Assembly: GCA_026387835.1 (NCBI GenBank)
Contig: JAPLKZ010000007.1
Span: 35,284-67,283, forward strand
Length of the DNA: 32,000 nucleotides
Direction of reading: 5' to 3'
From: Candidatus Saganbacteria bacterium
GTDB lineage: Bacteria > Margulisbacteria > WOR-1 > JAKLHX01
The notes beneath the pieces are model-generated. The model was not told the DNA's origin. It ran no database searches and saw nothing but the letters and a program-made list of their open reading frames with translations. Positions 9,574-15,323 of the stretch are shown here, piece after piece. Positions within the stretch are counted from its first letter, which is position 1. The number at the start of each line of letters is the position of its first letter. The position numbers were made by a program, and so were the translations under genes.

Positions 9574-9939
9574 ATGCAAAAACATGATATTTACGACAGA
9601 GTAACCGATTTTGTAGTAAGGGTTATTAAGTATTCAGAGAAAATATCAAAACTATTTTCGGGGAGAATTATTGCAAAACAAATGGTCCGGTCAGCGAGTT
9701 CCATCGGAGCGAATATGCAGGAGGCGGATGGTGCAACAACAAAAAAGGATTTTATAAACAAAATGGGCATCTCGAGAAAAGAAGCACAGGAAACCAGATA
9801 CTGGTTAGACCTATTGAAAAAGGCTGACATTATCAAGAACCATGGCAATATTTTAGAGCTCGATAATTTGCATAAAGAGAGCGATGAAATTTCAAAGATC
9901 CTGAGCAGCATCATTAATAAGACGATTAAGAATCAATAA
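9574..9939 (+). CDS. four-helix-bundle protein (23S rRNA intervening-sequence protein / Avd-like family)
   Basis: 121 aa. MVRSASSIGANMQEADG...KDFINKMGISRKEAQETRYWLDLL matches the family hallmark (R-x-A-x-S-I-x-x-N-x-x-E ... E-x-x-Y-W-L). Confidence 0.85.
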   Translation: MQKHDIYDRVTDFVVRVIKYSEKISKLFSGRIIAKQMVRSASSIGANMQEADGATTKKDFINKMGISRKEAQETRYWLDLLKKADIIKNHGNILELDNLHKESDEISKILSSIINKTIKNQ

Positions 9940-10002: not shown

Positions 10003-10030
10003 ATTGGAAATTGGCAATTGGACATTGGAA
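10003..10030 (-). repeat. repeat block 3, inverted: ATTGGAA ATTGGCA ATTGGAC ATTGGAA (reverse complement of NNCCAAT x4)
   Basis: Reverse complement is TTCCAAT GTCCAAT TGCCAAT TTCCAAT. It can pair with block 2 (25 of 32 positions by hand alignment) or with block 1 (23 of 28). Confidence 0.9.
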
Positions 10031-10060
10031 ATTTGTTTCGATGAAATTAAGTGTCTTCTT

Positions 10061-11170
10061 ATGGAAAAGATTAAATATTCAATAATCGGCGCAGGAGTAA
10101 TAGGTCTGGCCGTAGCTTATGCCCTTTCTCAGGACCAGAACGGCGAGATCGCGGTTTTTGAGAAGAACGATACTTTTGGGCAGGAAACCAGCTCCCGCAA
10201 CAGCGAGGTCATCCACGCGGGGATATATTATGTCAAGGATTCACTGAAGAGCAGACTGTGCATGGATGGCAATAAACTTCTCTATGAGTTCTGTGAAAAG
10301 AACGCTGTAAAGCACAAAAAATGCGGAAAGCTTATCGTGGCAACGGACGGAGAAGAAGTCAAAAAGATAGAGAAAATATATGCCAATGCTGTTTCAATGG
10401 GCGTGCCGGGATTAAAACTGATCGGGCAGGACGAAATAAAGAAATATGAGCCTGAGGTGTCCGCTTTAGGCGCTGTTTATTCAAAAACCACGGGAATAAT
10501 CGACAGCCACGGGCTTATGCAAAAGCTTTATGATCTGGCTAAAAAAAACAGGGTGATGTTTTCTTTCAAAAATGAAGTTATCGGCATCAGGAAAGAAAAA
10601 AATGGTTATGTTATAAAACCCCTGCAGGGGGACGAGGTCTTATCTGAGTTTGTAATAAACTGTGCCGGACTTGCGGGCGACAAGACCGCTGAGACGGCCG
10701 GTTTTGATATAGACAAGCTCGGATACAGGCTCCATTACTGTAAAGGCGATTATTTTGCGGTCCCGGGTGCGAACGGCAGATTAAGTCATTTAGTATATCC
10801 TCCGCCTCATGATAAAGGATATGGCCTGGGAGTCCACGCGACCATCGATCTGTCGGGACGTATCAGGCTCGGTCCGGATACTACATATGTGGACAGCATC
10901 GGTTATGATATCGATCCGGCGAAAGCAATAGATTTCTTTTCATCCGCAAAGAAGTTTCTGCCTTGGCTTGAAGAAAAAATGGTAGTTCCGGACACTTCAG
11001 GAATGCGCCCTAAGCTCCAGGGGCCGGATGACGGGATAAGAGATTTTGTGGTCAAAGAGGAATCGGACAACGGATTCCCGGGATTTATTAACTTAATCGG
11101 GATAGAATCTCCCGGGCTCACAAGTTGCCCGGCTATTGCTAATCTGGTCTCAAATTTAACAGGCAAATAA
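10061..11170 (+). CDS. FAD-dependent oxidoreductase, DAO family (LhgO/GlpD-like)
   Basis: From ATG 10061 the protein begins MEKIKYSIIGAGVIGLAVAYAL (dinucleotide-binding fold). SSRNSEVIHAGIYY is as in L-2-hydroxyglutarate oxidase-like enzymes. The track start 10004 lies inside repeat block 3. No clear SD, so the start is uncertain. Confidence 0.75.
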   Translation: MEKIKYSIIGAGVIGLAVAYALSQDQNGEIAVFEKNDTFGQETSSRNSEVIHAGIYYVKDSLKSRLCMDGNKLLYEFCEKNAVKHKKCGKLIVATDGEEVKKIEKIYANAVSMGVPGLKLIGQDEIKKYEPEVSALGAVYSKTTGIIDSHGLMQKLYDLAKKNRVMFSFKNEVIGIRKEKNGYVIKPLQGDEVLSEFVINCAGLAGDKTAETAGFDIDKLGYRLHYCKGDYFAVPGANGRLSHLVYPPPHDKGYGLGVHATIDLSGRIRLGPDTTYVDSIGYDIDPAKAIDFFSSAKKFLPWLEEKMVVPDTSGMRPKLQGPDDGIRDFVVKEESDNGFPGFINLIGIESPGLTSCPAIANLVSNLTGK

Positions 11171-12211
11171 ACTTCGTACCGCTTTCGTCGAGGGTTTTAT
11201 TATCCCTTTTTCTGTGATTATTCCTGTTATGTATTTTGCGGGTGTTACGTCAAAGGCGGGATTAAGCGCTTTGGATCCGGGAGAGCAGACTAAAATTTTT
11301 CTGATGACCCCTTTTTTATCAGGCCCCGTCTGATACAGGACTTCTTTCATATCCCTTTCCTCGATAGGAATATCTTTTCCCGAACCGCATTTCAGGTCAA
11401 ATGTCGAGGTGGGAGCGGCAACATAGAAAGGAATTCCGTATTCTTTGGCGCATATTGCTTTTTCAAATGTGCCTATCTTGTTTGCCGTATCTCCGTTGGC
11501 CGCTATCCTGTCCGCGCCGACAATCATAAGATCTACTTTTTCCCCTGACATCAGATATGCCCCGGCATTATCCGGGATTATCACGTGTGGGATATTTTCG
11601 TTCCTTAGTTCCCATGCGGTGAGCCTTGCACCCTGGCTTCTCGGTCTTGTTTCATCCACATACACAAATACTTCCTTCCCTTTCCTGGCAGCGGAATAAA
11701 CAGGGGACAGGGCGCTTCCCCAGTCGACAAAAGCAAGCCAGCCGGCATTGCAGTGAGTTTCAACTGCGTATCCGCTTTTTATCAGTTTCTCCCCGAACTG
11801 TCCGATCTTTCTGCAGCTTTCAGCGTCTTCGTCAGCAATCGCCAGGGCTTCCTGTAAAGCTGTCTTGCGCGGATCTTTTGAGCCGGAGCCCTTTTTAAAG
11901 ACCCTCTCGACCGCATAGAAGAGGTTCTGGGCCGTCGGTCTTGTGGATTCTATCTCCTTTTTAGCTTTGAGAATAAAGCTTTCAAAGCCCCTTTCAGGCG
12001 CCTCAAGATATGCCTGTGCCATCGCGAAGCCGGCCGCGGCACCTATGGCTCCCGCGCCGCGTACGGTCATTTTCTTTATTGCTACGCAGGTTTCTTTATA
12101 TGTTTTAGATCTGAATACTCTAAAAGTGAAGGGCAGCAGGTTCTGTTCGATCATGAACACAGAACCGTTTTCCATCGAAACAGTCCGGTAATGTTTTTTG
12201 TTGACTTTCAT
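11156..12211 (-). CDS. mtnA: S-methyl-5-thioribose-1-phosphate isomerase (eIF-2B alpha/beta/delta-like family)
   Basis: VRGAGAIG, THCNAGWLA (catalytic Cys context), ETRPRSQGARLTAWEL, NPAFDVTP. An N-terminal beta-domain (MIEQNLLPF) is present as in MtnA. Confidence 0.85.
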   Translation of the reverse strand: MKVNKKHYRTVSMENGSVFMIEQNLLPFTFRVFRSKTYKETCVAIKKMTVRGAGAIGAAAGFAMAQAYLEAPERGFESFILKAKKEIESTRPTAQNLFYAVERVFKKGSGSKDPRKTALQEALAIADEDAESCRKIGQFGEKLIKSGYAVETHCNAGWLAFVDWGSALSPVYSAARKGKEVFVYVDETRPRSQGARLTAWELRNENIPHVIIPDNAGAYLMSGEKVDLMIVGADRIAANGDTANKIGTFEKAICAKEYGIPFYVAAPTSTFDLKCGSGKDIPIEERDMKEVLYQTGPDKKGVIRKILVCSPGSKALNPAFDVTPAKYITGIITEKGIIKPSTKAVRSLFAC

Positions 12212-12217
12212 ATAGGG

Positions 12218-12245
12218 ATTATAGCAAATATTCGTTGCTTGACAA
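12218..12245 (-). promoter_or_regulatory. candidate mtnA promoter (TTGTCA-16 nt-TGcTATAAT), ATG 6 nt downstream
   Basis: On the minus strand: TTGTCA (12240-12245), TG-c (12224-12226), TATAAT (12218-12223), ccctat, then ATG (12209-12211). No SD. Confidence 0.45.
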
Positions 12246-12266
12246 ATATAAAGGCGGTCATATAGG
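12239..12266 (+). promoter_or_regulatory. candidate promoter for the aldolase-ADH pair (TTGACA-16 nt-TATAGG)
   Basis: TTGACA at 12239-12244 overlaps the opposing -35 box. Weak -10 at 12261-12266. AGGAGG SD at 12276-12281, which would leave a very short leader. Confidence 0.3.
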
Positions 12267-12288
12267 ATTATTCCTAGGAGGGGAAAAT

Positions 12289-13068
12289 GTGGACTGGGGA
12301 ATGCAGAATAGATTAAATAATCTTATGCCGGGCGGGCGGTGTTTTTTCATGCCCATTGATCACGGTTACTTTCAGGGCCCGACATCAGGGCTAGAAAAAC
12401 CGCGGGAGACCGTAAAGCCGCTTCTTCCTTATGTAGACGCGCTTTTTTGTACGAGAGGCACCCTTCGTGCGTGCATAGATCCAAAAAACACAAAACCGAT
12501 AGTGCTCAGGGTTTCCGGCGGAACCAGTATGGTCGGGAAAGATCTGGCAAACGAAATGATCACAACTTCGATAGATGAAATAATCGCTCTCAACGCGTCC
12601 GCGGTCGGGGTCTCGGTTTTTATCGGGAGCAGCTACGAGAAGGAAACTTTAAAGAACCTGACTGACATGGTAAACCAATGCGAGAAATATGGGATCCCCG
12701 TAATGGCAGTGACGGCCGTGGGCAGGGAAATGGAAAAGAGGGATGCCCGTTATTTATCATTATGCTGCCGGATAGCTGCGGAACTGGGTGCAAAGGTCGT
12801 GAAAACATACTGGTGCGATGGCTTTGAAAAGGTCGTTGAAGGCTGCCCTGTACCGGTGATCATAGCCGGAGGCCCTAAATGCAATACAGAGACAGAAGTT
12901 TTTGAGTTCGTACACGACGGGATGAAAAAAGGCGCGGTCGGGATAAATCTCGGGCGCAATGTCTGGCAGAGCCCGCATCCCGTAGCAATAGCAAAAGCCC
13001 TGCAGGCGATCATCCACAAAAATGCTTCGGTTAAGGAAGCTCTTTCTATCTTTAACAGCAGCAAATAG
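12289..13068 (+). CDS. class I (Schiff-base) aldolase, DhnA/FbaB/LsrF family
   Basis: FMPIDHGYFQGP, VSVFIGS, GAKVVKTYW (Lys context), IIAGGPK, GINLGRNVWQ. GTG 12289 lies 7 nt after AGGAGG. ATG 12301 and the track TTG 12235 are alternative starts. Confidence 0.75.
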   Translation: MDWGMQNRLNNLMPGGRCFFMPIDHGYFQGPTSGLEKPRETVKPLLPYVDALFCTRGTLRACIDPKNTKPIVLRVSGGTSMVGKDLANEMITTSIDEIIALNASAVGVSVFIGSSYEKETLKNLTDMVNQCEKYGIPVMAVTAVGREMEKRDARYLSLCCRIAAELGAKVVKTYWCDGFEKVVEGCPVPVIIAGGPKCNTETEVFEFVHDGMKKGAVGINLGRNVWQSPHPVAIAKALQAIIHKNASVKEALSIFNSSK

Positions 13069-13083
13069 ATCAAAAACTAAACC

Positions 13084-14061
13084 ATGAAAGCAGCGCAGTA
13101 TCATAACAATAAGGATATCAGGATCATCGATATTCCTGTTCCCAAAATAGGCGAGGGAGAACTTTTAATAAAGGTCATCTCGAGCGGTATTTGCGGGACG
13201 GATGTCATGGAATGGTACAGGATAAAAAAAGCCCCGAGGATACTGGGCCATGAGATCGCAGGAGAGGTTGTCGAATCAAGATCTGATAAATTCAAAGTTG
13301 GTCAGAGGGTCTTTGTAAACCACCACGTACCTTGCAACAGCTGTAAATACTGCATGGCCGGGAACCACACTGCCTGCGAGACATTGCACAAAGGTAATTA
13401 TGATCCGGGCGGCTTTAGCGAATTTGTCAGGGTACCGAAAATAAATGCCGATGCCGGCACGTATTTGCTTCCAGATAGCGTTTCCTATGATGAGGGAACC
13501 ATGATAGAGCCGCTGGGTTGTGTAGTCCGCGGTCAGAGGTTGATCGACATTAAAAAAGGACAAACAGTCCTGATCCTGGGAAGCGGATTTTCCGGGCTCA
13601 TGAATATCAAAATGGCAAAGCTCAAGGGGGCTTATGTCATCGCAACGGATATAAACGAGTTCAAACTTAAGAAGGCAAAAGAATACGGTGCTGACAGGAT
13701 CGTAAATGCAACTACAAAGTTGGATATAAAAGCAGATAAGATAATCGTCTGTACCGGAGCATACCAAGCCATAGTTCAGGCTTTTGAAACGATAGACAGA
13801 AAAGGCACTATTTTGCTGTTCGCGATACCTGACAGGAATATCGAAGTCCCGACGGTAGATTTCTGGAGGAATGAAATAACGATGACATCATCCTATGGTG
13901 CGGGCCCGGTCGATCTTGAAGAGGCATTGACGTTAATAAATAACAAAAAAGTAGATGTTAAATCTTTTATTACACACAAATTTCCTCTTAATGATATCCA
14001 AAAGGGATTTGACACGGCAGCAAGCGCGAAAGATTCTATGAAAGTATTAATCAAGCCCTAA
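13084..14061 (+). CDS. zinc-dependent alcohol dehydrogenase (MDR superfamily)
   Basis: GICGTD, GHEIAGEV, structural-Zn Cys cluster CNSCKYCMAGNHTAC, nucleotide fold LILGSGFSG. Confidence 0.85.
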   Translation: MKAAQYHNNKDIRIIDIPVPKIGEGELLIKVISSGICGTDVMEWYRIKKAPRILGHEIAGEVVESRSDKFKVGQRVFVNHHVPCNSCKYCMAGNHTACETLHKGNYDPGGFSEFVRVPKINADAGTYLLPDSVSYDEGTMIEPLGCVVRGQRLIDIKKGQTVLILGSGFSGLMNIKMAKLKGAYVIATDINEFKLKKAKEYGADRIVNATTKLDIKADKIIVCTGAYQAIVQAFETIDRKGTILLFAIPDRNIEVPTVDFWRNEITMTSSYGAGPVDLEEALTLINNKKVDVKSFITHKFPLNDIQKGFDTAASAKDSMKVLIKP

Positions 14062-14067
14062 TTAAGG

Positions 14068-14595
14068 TTAATCTCCTTCAAACTCTGTTTGCGAGTACAC
14101 AGAGTAACCGGCGTCTTCCAGCTTTTTTCTCCCACCCAGGTCAGGCAGATCGACTATAAAAGCAAGCTCGATCACATCTCCTCCAAGCTTTTTGACGAGT
14201 TTTGTGGCTGCGGTTGCCGTGCCTCCGGTGGCAAGAAGATCATCAATAATAAGGACCTTCATTCCTTTTGCTATAGCGTCTTTGTGGATCTCGATGGCAT
14301 CAGTTCCGTATTCAAGGCTGTATTCTTCTCTTTCGATTTCTGCCGGAAGCTTCCCCTTTTTTCTTATAGGGACAAAGCCTTTACCCAGAACAAAAGCGAG
14401 CGCACCCCCAATAATAAAACCCCTTGAATCGATCCCCGCGATCATATCAATATCTTTCTCTTTGTACCGGTTCATAAAATCGTCTATGCAGAGTTTTAGG
14501 CCTACGGGATCTTTGAGCAAAGTGGTAATATCACGGAACATGATCCCCTGTTTGGGCCAGTGCGGAACGGTCCTTATCCTTGATTTGATAGGCAT
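14068..14595 (-). CDS. apt: adenine phosphoribosyltransferase
   Basis: 175 aa. PRPP-binding motif [14 protein letters not shown]. The N-terminal FRDITTLL block is typical of Apt. Confidence 0.92.
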
Positions 14596-14597
14596 CT

Positions 14598-15323
14598 TTA
14601 TATCCTCCCTGCCACTTTGATCAGAAGTTTCTTCACTTTTTCGGCGTTATCCTTCATCCTTTGCATCACCATTTCATAAGTGACCGGTGCTTCATCGTCC
14701 TTCCAGCAGTCATAATCGGTAGACATCGCGATAGTCATGCCGAGCTCATTGGCAAGAATTACCTCGGGGCATGTAGACATGTTTATGATATCAGCGCCCC
14801 AGGCCCTGAACATATGGCTTTCAGACTTGGTTGAGAACCTCGGGCCTTCTATTGTGATAACGGTCACATCCTTGTTGTATGTGATACCCATCTCATCGCA
14901 TGTCTTGCATAATATGTCGGTCATGGCATTATCATACGGCTGGCTCATGGACGTGTGGACAACGCTGTCATGGAAATAGGTCAAGTTCCTATGCCTTGTA
15001 AAATCAATGAACTGTGACGGAAAAACCAAATTTCCGGGTTTGATCTCTGCCCTGAGGGATCCCACGGCGGTCACAGCCAGGATATGAGTGCATCTTTCTT
15101 CTTTAAGGGCGAACATATTAGCGAGAAAATTGATCTTAGTGGGGGAAATTGAATGGTTCTTTCCGTGCCTTGCAAGGATGACCACATCCGTCCCGTCTAT
15201 TTTTCCTGTTATAAGGGGAGAAGTGCAATGGCCAAACCTGTTGGATATCTTCTTTTCTTTTGGATTATCGAGGATATCCGGATTGTCCAGTCCCGAGCCG
15301 CCGATTATTGCTATTTTGGTCAT
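14598..15323 (-). CDS. mtnP: S-methyl-5'-thioadenosine phosphorylase
   Basis: [37 protein letters not shown]. These are MTAP-type PNP family blocks. AAGGAG SD. Confidence 0.85.

Follow-up and report, generated by a model that had tools for sequence, protein, structure and literature searches.

An LsrF-type and dehydrogenase gene pair that appears to have replaced the class II aldolase of an mtnP-apt-mtnA operon: a likely variant of the dihydroxyacetone phosphate shunt

The mtnA locus considered here is likely to encode a variant of the dihydroxyacetone phosphate (DHAP) shunt with new enzymology, in which a gene pair encoding an LsrF-type protein and a Zn dehydrogenase appears to stand in place of the class II aldolase found in related operons. 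The locus lies within a 32,000 nucleotide stretch of DNA (the window) from a Candidatus Saganbacteria bacterium (assembly GCA_026387835.1, contig JAPLKZ010000007.1, positions 35,284 to 67,283), a small uncultured anaerobe whose genome, G000, amounts to 1.5 Mb in 13 contigs and is 95% complete. Every organism with radical S-adenosylmethionine (SAM) enzymes must dispose of 5'-deoxyadenosine, and five contiguous open reading frames (ORFs) in the window have been linked to this task and to the salvage of 5'-methylthioadenosine (MTA) in an earlier reading of the sequence, called the original prediction here. The contiguity of the five and the families to which they were assigned are upheld, whilst the view of them as a self-contained island is not: the window contains an old mtnP-apt-mtnA operon with an inserted mobile two-gene module, rather than a single evolutionary unit. 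In order of position the features are:

11156-12211, minus strand: mtnA, 5-methylthioribose-1-phosphate / 5-deoxyribose-1-phosphate isomerase (TIGR00512 376.8 bits, cut-off 279; NF004326 396)
12212-12288, no strand: divergent control region of 77 bp, between mtnA and the LsrF-like and dehydrogenase pair
12289-13068, plus strand: LsrF-type gene of the DeoC family, 259 amino acids (NF006081 354.9, cut-off 297)
13084-14061, plus strand: Zn dehydrogenase of the medium-chain dehydrogenase/reductase (MDR) superfamily, NAD-type, 325 amino acids (PF08240, PF00107)
14068-14595, minus strand: apt, adenine phosphoribosyltransferase (NF002634 271.5, cut-off 170; TIGR01090 223.8)
14598-15323, minus strand: mtnP, 5'-methylthioadenosine / 5'-deoxyadenosine phosphorylase (PF01048; TIGR01694 264.6, about 10 bits under the cut-off of 274.85)

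The DHAP shunt, or 5-deoxyribose disposal, is known from Rhodospirillum rubrum, extraintestinal pathogenic Escherichia coli (ExPEC) and Bacillus thuringiensis, where MtnP or MtnN with MtnK/DrdK, then MtnA/DrdI, then Ald2/DrdA are the enzymes of the pathway, and what the window would share with it is the phosphorylase, the isomerase and the C3-C4 cleavage of a ketopentose-1-phosphate giving DHAP (PMC6079011, PMC10986504). An isomerase of the mtnA/DrdI type is clearly present on its TIGR00512 score, and its orthologues, 67-73% identical, lie within the mtnP-apt-mtnA operons of 33 genomes. The mtnP product falls slightly short of its own model but is 70-79% identical to orthologues that head the operon of relatives and do pass TIGR01694, which gives the phosphorylase of the shunt; orthologues of apt are 79-91% identical and are placed between mtnP and mtnA in relatives. 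The operon in the window differs from the known shunt in having two genes instead of a class II metal aldolase, in including apt, and in its likely yield of acetyl-CoA and NADH rather than acetaldehyde.

The evidence for a replacement comes from the gene order of relatives. The phylum of the window was sampled as 146 species genomes, from which 54 mtnA neighbourhoods were fetched and the window proteins mapped onto them. The usual arrangement in the class of the window is mtnP-apt-mtnA, and in 21 of the 54 neighbourhoods mtnA is directly followed by a class II aldolase-family gene of ~190 amino acids (termed aldII here), usually in the order mtnP-apt-mtnA-aldII. The aldII product has weak matches to MtnB and FucA, with DrdA (6BTD) its best solved relative, and a phylum-wide search detected the gene in 23 of the 146 genomes, each time beside mtnA. 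The LsrF-like gene is found in only eight of the 146 and in none of the seven other genomes of the window's own family; aldII is absent from all eight of its carriers, and the relatives' type of aldII is found nowhere in G000. The family member G092 has a flavin adenine dinucleotide (FAD) oxidoreductase gene on the plus strand followed by aldII, mtnA, apt and mtnP on the minus strand, the first three genes having the same order and strands in G099 and G123 as well. In the window the aldII slot is empty, and mtnA and apt are separated by the LsrF and dehydrogenase pair, which runs on the other strand. In G120 the order is mtnP-apt-mtnA-lsrF-adh, with all genes co-directional and separated by short gaps, so that the pair is exactly in the aldII slot, and a distance of 6.4 kb separates the pair from mtnA in G139, with intervening genes that look inserted. 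This intervening stretch (L083:5764-11987) contains two small ORFs resembling a toxin-antitoxin or abortive infection (Abi) pair of the nucleotidyltransferase type and an ORF of 1041 amino acids, and may be an insertion that split an earlier divergent lsrF-adh / mtnA arrangement like that of the window.

The two modules exclude one another. This operon type occurs in 34 genomes, of which 22 carry aldII, four the LsrF and dehydrogenase pair, and eight neither module; the two together occur in none of them (Fisher p = 0.011, although this and the p-values given below are optimistic, as related genomes are not independent). The comparison supports an ancestral operon of the class composed of mtnP-apt-mtnA and aldII, in which the pair would have replaced aldII. 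A non-orthologous replacement of the shunt aldolase had been proposed from the window alone and is borne out by the relatives with mtnP-apt-mtnA-aldII, by G000 and G120 with the pair and without aldII, and by the lack of any co-occurrence in the 146 genomes; whilst the replacement is right, the chemistry proposed along with it probably is not.

The pair also reached the operon more than once. When 89 LsrF-like sequences were placed in a maximum-likelihood tree, the eight from the phylum came out in at least four places, needing at least four origins. Those of G000, G104 and G116 belong to a clade with 100/97 support in which Omnitrophota, Elusimicrobiota and Desulfobaccales predominate, and those of G120, G139, G105, G143 and G144 fall outside it. 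As the copies of G000 and G120 are on opposite sides of the 100/97 branch, their insertions into the mtn operon are separate events. Given ~1500 genes in the genome, of whose junctions four are in or at the operon, the chance of two operon hits among four to eight acquisitions is ~1e-4. That two insertions into the operon occurred independently is good evidence for MtnA's product being the substrate of the pair.

What the LsrF-type enzyme may do with this product depends on its identity. The original prediction took it to be a class I aldolase of the DhnA/FbaB/LsrF family and suggested an assignment of 12289-13068 with profile models as a check; this assignment returns an LsrF-type member of the DeoC family with a Schiff-base lysine, and not a generic DhnA or FbaB aldolase. 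The protein passes NF006081, the NCBI equivalog model of the LsrF thiolase, and fails the ADH synthase model TIGR01949 (199 against 299.45), the archaeal fructose-1,6-bisphosphate (FBP) aldolase model NF040816 (130.6 against 430) and NF006704 (52 against 277). In a comparison with the PDB, E. coli LsrF (3gkf/4p2v) scores 260 bits, ahead of MJ0400 with 150 and the archaeal FBP aldolase (FBPA) of T. tenax with 88, and the alignment with E. coli LsrF has 47% identity over 255 residues. The ligand-binding and catalytic residues of E. coli LsrF are Asp57, His58, Lys203, Tyr205, Gly226, Gly227, Gly253 and Arg254 (PMC2728841), and none of the eight varies in any of 88 family members; the key residues of the window protein are the Schiff-base Lys172 with Asp24, His25, Tyr174, Gly194, Gly195 and Arg223. 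The catalytic tyrosine of DhnA aldolases (Tyr153 of MJ0400, Tyr146 of T. tenax) is opposite a gap in the window protein, which is as long as E. coli LsrF in this region, and this tyrosine is not conserved in LsrF either (PMC2728841). Across several phyla 130 of 258 columns of the family are at least 95% identical, and one search gave more than 8000 strong homologue matches, mostly named 'AI-2 aldolase' (for autoinducer-2) or 'P-HPD thiolase' (for 3-hydroxy-2,4-pentanedione-5-phosphate, P-HPD), among which homologues named Saganbacteria/WOR-1 are 81-82% identical and Margulisiibacteriota 80%. The gene starts at the ATG at 12289 that is common to its homologues, and not at the upstream TTG at 12235, and is the only DeoC-family gene in G000.

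Two groups of known enzymes are thus to be compared. With LsrF of the E. coli/Salmonella lsr operon (PDB 3GKF, 3GLC, 4P2V; PMC2728841) the window protein shares the Schiff-base lysine, Asp57, His58, Tyr205 and the phosphate-binding Gly-Gly and Gly-Arg, as well as the loss of the DhnA tyrosine. It differs in having no lsr transporter, LsrK, LsrG, LsrR or LuxS to accompany it, in its Zn dehydrogenase partner, in the Asn-Leu that replaces Asp251-Met252, and in its distribution over anaerobic, mostly uncultured phyla. The archaeal-type class I aldolases (FBPA of T. tenax and the ADH synthase MJ0400 of M. jannaschii) have the fold, the Schiff-base lysine and the general-base aspartate in common with it, but the catalytic tyrosine is absent, the scores are far under the cut-offs and neither activity is needed by G000.

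The dehydrogenase was seen in the original prediction as a reducer of the aldehyde released by an aldolase, a role that is now doubtful. Its best NCBIfam matches are Tdh models (172.7 against 380 and 169 against 458), so that it is a relative of Tdh and not a member, and its best PDB matches are sorbitol dehydrogenase (137 bits), ketose reductase (128), arabinitol dehydrogenase (L-arabinitol 4-dehydrogenase; 126) and Tdh (120), with classical alcohol dehydrogenase at 114, a modest margin for polyol over classical types (137 against 114). The catalytic Zn ligands are Cys37, His56 and Glu57, with Glu142 aligned to the IEPL of sorbitol dehydrogenase, and there are structural Zn cysteines at 84, 87, 90 and 98, a GSGFSG motif at 166-171 and an NAD-type Asp189. 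On these features the protein is placed in the polyol/threonine/butanediol (PDH) branch of the MDR superfamily and not among the classical aldehyde-reducing alcohol dehydrogenases. Members of the PDH branch oxidise secondary carbinols beside another hydroxyl or amino group.

It is apparent that this dehydrogenase is a near-obligatory partner of the LsrF-like gene in many phyla. It adjoins the gene in all eight carrier genomes of the window's phylum and, among 80 loci of other phyla with an LsrF-like gene 69-82% identical to that of the window, in at least 67, most of the remaining loci ending at a contig edge; the phyla sampled include Omnitrophota, Elusimicrobiota, Planctomycetota, Desulfobaccales, Syntrophales, Zixibacteria, Ignavibacteria, Nitrospinota and Aminicenantes. 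An unbiased clustering of all neighbouring ORFs revealed nothing besides the dehydrogenase that is broadly conserved, and no lsr transporter, LsrG, LsrK or LsrR was found beside the gene in ~100 loci. A second LsrF-like subfamily in Omnitrophota, with 52-59% identity, has a Zn dehydrogenase partner in 20 of 20 loci (L141-L160; G378, G390, G404 and others), with the gene order reversed and the dehydrogenase upstream in 19 of the 20, and 12 of those loci have ~1.6 to 2.9 kb of variable genes, such as membrane proteins and a phosphoenolpyruvate carboxykinase (PEPCK)-like gene, between the two. We infer that the two-gene module is mobile and horizontally acquired.

Some of the surroundings of the pair in other phyla are of note in themselves. 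In the Desulfobaccales (G146-G216; L010, L023, L032, L038) the genes that often occur at 2 to 10 kb from the pair are one resembling class II aldolases (of the OtnC, AraD or FucA kind), one for a SIS-domain regulator of the RpiR/MurR type and two paralogous family III CoA-transferase genes, which together look like a lineage-specific sugar-phosphate and acyl-CoA island. In the Omnitrophota locus L144 a purine nucleoside phosphorylase (PNP)-family gene, an eIF2B/MtnA-like gene and a 508 amino acid ORF that matches class II aldolases are found 3 to 6 kb downstream, the N-terminus of this ORF being eIF2B-like by eye only.

The gene content of G000 also limits what the operon can be for. There are 17 radical SAM genes, one within the adjacent pse operon, and no spermidine synthase above cut-off was found in the genome, which makes 5'-deoxyadenosine the certain substrate of the operon. 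Neither a RuBisCO-like protein nor acireductone dioxygenase (ARD/MtnD) was found in this 95% complete genome, MtnC and MtnX not having been searched for, and the full methionine salvage pathway is not present. No LuxS was found, and class II FBP aldolase (FBA), Dxs and the canonical 3-dehydroquinate (DHQ) synthase AroB are all present. The statement in the original prediction that there is no class II aldolase is true of the island only, as G000 has a single class II aldolase-family gene on another contig (G000:C9:145711-146226), beside a PfkB kinase. At this locus (G000:C9:144742-146391, L001:532-2181) the gene, of 232 amino acids, follows the PfkB-family kinase and has NF006413 as its best match (131 against 203), and in other classes of the phylum homologues 29-38% identical to it are flanked by mtnP and mtnA (L089, L090, L093, L102, L103). 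The gene may encode a further shunt aldolase, unlinked to the operon.

A route in which the dehydrogenase acts first and is followed by a CoA-dependent cleavage to DHAP and acetyl-CoA is tentatively put forward, on sequence grounds, as the leading account of the pair, somewhat short of probable as it stands. LsrF is reportedly a P-HPD thiolase, a finding said to be that of Marques et al. in PNAS in 2014. From the structures alone, P-HPD would be 5-deoxyribulose-1-phosphate with its C4 hydroxyl turned into a ketone, the oxidation state of this one carbon being the sole difference, and the C-C bond that LsrF cuts in P-HPD would be the same bond that an aldolase would cut in 5-deoxyribulose-1-phosphate. 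In such a route MtnP would phosphorolyse the nucleoside, with the adenine recycled by Apt, and MtnA would convert 5-deoxyribose-1-phosphate to 5-deoxyribulose-1-phosphate, steps for which the enzymes are assigned by family models. The Zn dehydrogenase, as a putative 5-deoxyribulose-1-phosphate 4-dehydrogenase, would then oxidise the C4 hydroxyl with NAD+ to give P-HPD, the known substrate of LsrF, and the LsrF-type enzyme, as a proposed P-HPD thiolase, would form a Schiff base through Lys172 and pass the acetyl group to CoA, leaving DHAP and acetyl-CoA. No free acetaldehyde would be formed, the carbon being kept as an activated acyl group, and the module that does this would have displaced the class II (DrdA/Ald2-like) aldolase downstream of mtnA.

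The same logic may be recognised in Tdh/Kbl, in which an MDR Zn dehydrogenase makes a methyl ketone from CH3-CHOH- and a CoA-dependent retro-Claisen cleavage frees acetyl-CoA, and by analogy the CH3-CHOH-CHOH- end of the sugar would be the motif oxidised by threonine and butanediol dehydrogenases, relatives of the dehydrogenase in the window. The system differs from Tdh/Kbl in that the dehydrogenase is under the Tdh cut-off (173 against 380), the substrate would be a sugar phosphate, and the second enzyme is a Schiff-base TIM barrel and not a pyridoxal phosphate (PLP) enzyme. Oxidation followed by thiolysis fits better than cleavage followed by reduction because the dehydrogenase is of the PDH branch and is a near-obligatory partner. 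It would explain why the LsrF-like gene is almost never without a dehydrogenase, in either gene order, and why an LsrF-type enzyme is found without LsrK, LsrG or LuxS.

Cleavage followed by reduction is nevertheless the alternative that survives best, although it is rather doubtful. The LsrF-like protein would act as a class I aldolase that splits 5-deoxyribulose-1-phosphate and 5-methylthioribulose-1-phosphate into DHAP and acetaldehyde or 2-(methylthio)acetaldehyde, with the Zn dehydrogenase reducing the aldehyde to ethanol or 2-(methylthio)ethanol. The evidence of displacement and linkage serves this reading equally, the Schiff-base lysine, general-base aspartate and phosphate site are conserved, the bond cut is the same as in the LsrF reaction, and with an asparagine at the position of Asp251 the chemistry may differ from that of LsrF. 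A dedicated reductase is a plausible partner for a toxic aldehyde, and 2-(methylthio)acetaldehyde is reduced in the known shunt (PMC6302742). However, the protein fails every aldolase model and passes that of the LsrF thiolase, the catalytic tyrosine of the nearest true aldolases is absent, and the dehydrogenase is of the secondary-alcohol (polyol/Tdh) type rather than an aldehyde reductase. The class II aldolase operons of relatives carry no such dehydrogenase, yet the LsrF-like gene, which would have replaced that aldolase, almost always has one.

Both of these routes start from the product of MtnA, and taken together the roles that have no connection with MtnA are unlikely. The strongest of them, itself distinctly unlikely, is that the pair acts on some other 1-deoxy or 5-deoxy ketose phosphate, for instance 1-deoxyxylulose 5-phosphate (DXP), or on a 6-deoxyhexulose-1-phosphate to give lactoyl-CoA, and that its position in the mtn operon is an accidental insertion. 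Such a role would suit the 80 loci of other phyla, in which the pair is alone without a conserved neighbour; DXP oxidised at C4 would also yield P-HPD and Dxs is present in G000, and in G000 the pair runs against the direction of the operon, a kind of insertion that can be neutral. It does not suit the two independent acquisitions in the same three-gene operon with a third within 6.4 kb, the co-directional copy of G120 exactly in the aldolase slot, or the full exclusion between the pair and the aldolase of the operon. An alternative synthesis of DXP was also considered, and is not needed as Dxs is present.

The co-occurrence of the pair with mtnA across genomes, which had been suggested as a check, also speaks against an unrelated substrate. 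mtnA is found in 65 of 66 LsrF-positive and 107 of 135 LsrF-negative genomes of a 201-genome sample of Omnitrophota (p = 8e-5), in 47 of 48 against 33 of 35 in the Desulfobaccales (p = 0.57), and in seven of eight (the exception being 51% complete) against 50 of 138 in the phylum of the window (p = 0.006). Pooling the three lineage scans, 119 of 122 LsrF-positive genomes have mtnA, and the three exceptions include the 51% complete genome and another with only a contig-end fragment of the LsrF gene. A further ten of ten LsrF-carrying genomes have mtnA, five being complete chromosomes from other phyla and the other five belonging to Omnitrophota that may overlap with the 201. The pattern is as predicted if the pair depends on MtnA, and the co-occurrence asked for in the original prediction is indeed high, but it is only weakly informative and its support moderate, limited because mtnA is so common in these phyla.

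Two further roles can be dealt with briefly. That the protein degrades imported phospho-AI-2, as the database names suggest, is very improbable: it passes NF006081, and FGGY-family kinases are present in G000, unlinked, so that some LsrK-like activity is conceivable, but there is no LuxS in G000 and there are no lsr genes beside the gene in ~100 loci, the constant dehydrogenase partner is absent from the lsr operon and Asp251 is changed; a role in AI-2 processing was rejected for the lack of LuxS and lsr neighbours. A housekeeping aldolase, either a glycolytic FbaB-type FBP aldolase or the ADH synthase (AroA') of the alternative entry to the shikimate pathway, is scarcely credible despite the DeoC/DhnA fold and MJ0400 being the second-best PDB match, given that class II FBA and canonical AroB are present, that the gene is found in none of the seven same-family genomes and in eight of 146 in the phylum, and that the protein lacks the catalytic tyrosine and scores under the ADH synthase and FBA cut-offs. 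The glycolytic role was accordingly rejected on the presence of class II FBA and the rarity of the gene, and the AroA'/AroB' route on the ADH synthase score and the presence of a canonical DHQ synthase.

A number of points weigh against the oxidative and thiolytic route, or against the link to MtnA on which it depends, in addition to the optimism of the p-values and the modest margin between polyol and classical dehydrogenases. Within the phylum eight genomes have mtnP-apt-mtnA with neither module detectable (G117, G090, G136, G100, G103, G127, G138 and G137; L107, L109, L119, L120, L131-L134), and the absence of aldII is therefore not unique to carriers of the LsrF-like gene. Outside the phylum mtnA, mtnP or apt was found within 8 kb of the pair in none of the 80 loci, so that gene order there gives no support for a link to mtnA, and in the second subfamily the pair is beside mtnA in one of 20 loci. 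With mtnA in 80 of 83 Desulfobaccales genomes co-occurrence is uninformative in that lineage, and a complementarity between the pair and class II aldolases was rejected there, as a different class II subtype (OtnC/AraD/FucA-like) is present in 78 of the 83 genomes, often near the pair. In the enzyme itself Asp251-Met252 of LsrF is replaced by Asn-Leu in 88 of 88 family members, the residue in the window being Asn220, and as Asp251, beside the catalytic lysine, was proposed as a catalytic residue in the paper on the LsrF structure (PMC2728841) the chemistry need not equal that of LsrF. Finally, if MTA is a substrate as well, the product would be (methylthio)acetyl-CoA, which is without a known fate.

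A full-text search of the literature returned only class II aldolases in this pathway, and no paper in which the salvage of MTA or 5-deoxyribose is linked to class I aldolases or to enzymes of the LsrF type. It has been pointed out that the known disposal clusters are by no means universal and that organisms must have other strategies as well (Beaudoin et al., PMC6079011). The window and its relatives may be seen as a natural experiment, in which 22 genomes have the known class II aldolase and two independently derived cases have the LsrF-type gene and dehydrogenase in its place. What the window contributes is an aldolase replaced in situ within an otherwise conserved operon, two modules that exclude each other and two insertions of independent origin. 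If the proposed route is true it would be a new branch of the salvage of SAM by-products, an oxidative and thiolytic exit for 5'-deoxyadenosine, and perhaps MTA, that has not been described. LsrF-type enzymes would gain a function unrelated to quorum sensing, and thousands of 'AI-2 aldolase / LsrF' annotations would be corrected in Omnitrophota, Desulfobaccales, Syntrophales, Planctomycetota, Zixibacteria, Elusimicrobia and the phylum of the window. It would also explain the concentration of the pair in strict anaerobes rich in radical SAM enzymes.

The inserted pair separates mtnA from mtnP-apt, and mtnA now has a promoter-like site of its own at 12245-12218 on the minus strand (TTGTCA-16-TATAAT with TG, 11/12), with a second site at 12239-12268 on the plus strand (TTGACA-18-TAGGAT, 10/12). 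Both matches are strong but to the consensus only, on which basis mtnA and the module may share one control region.

On the other side of mtnA is a further gene that may have some connection with the pathway:

10004-11170, plus strand: FAD oxidoreductase, LhgO-like or like a type-2 glycerol-3-phosphate oxidase (PF01266; NF008726 226, cut-off 299, and NF033460 179, both below cut-off)

Its stop overlaps that of mtnA in the window, at the position of the class II aldolase of relatives. It adjoins mtnA or the mtn operon in eight of 55 neighbourhoods (the window, L082:1044-2144, L094, L098, L099, L118, L124 and L130), and in genomes with another type of mtnA (G142, G143, G145) it is co-directional and ~40 bp downstream of mtnA. 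A link between this oxidoreductase and DHAP or the aldehyde product is conceivable.

G000 (9574-9939 of the window, plus strand) and G120 (L082:11531-11890, minus strand) each have, within a few kb of the mtn operon, a similar small gene for a four-helix bundle with the motif SIGANxxEADG, of the kind annotated as a 23S rRNA intervening-sequence protein.

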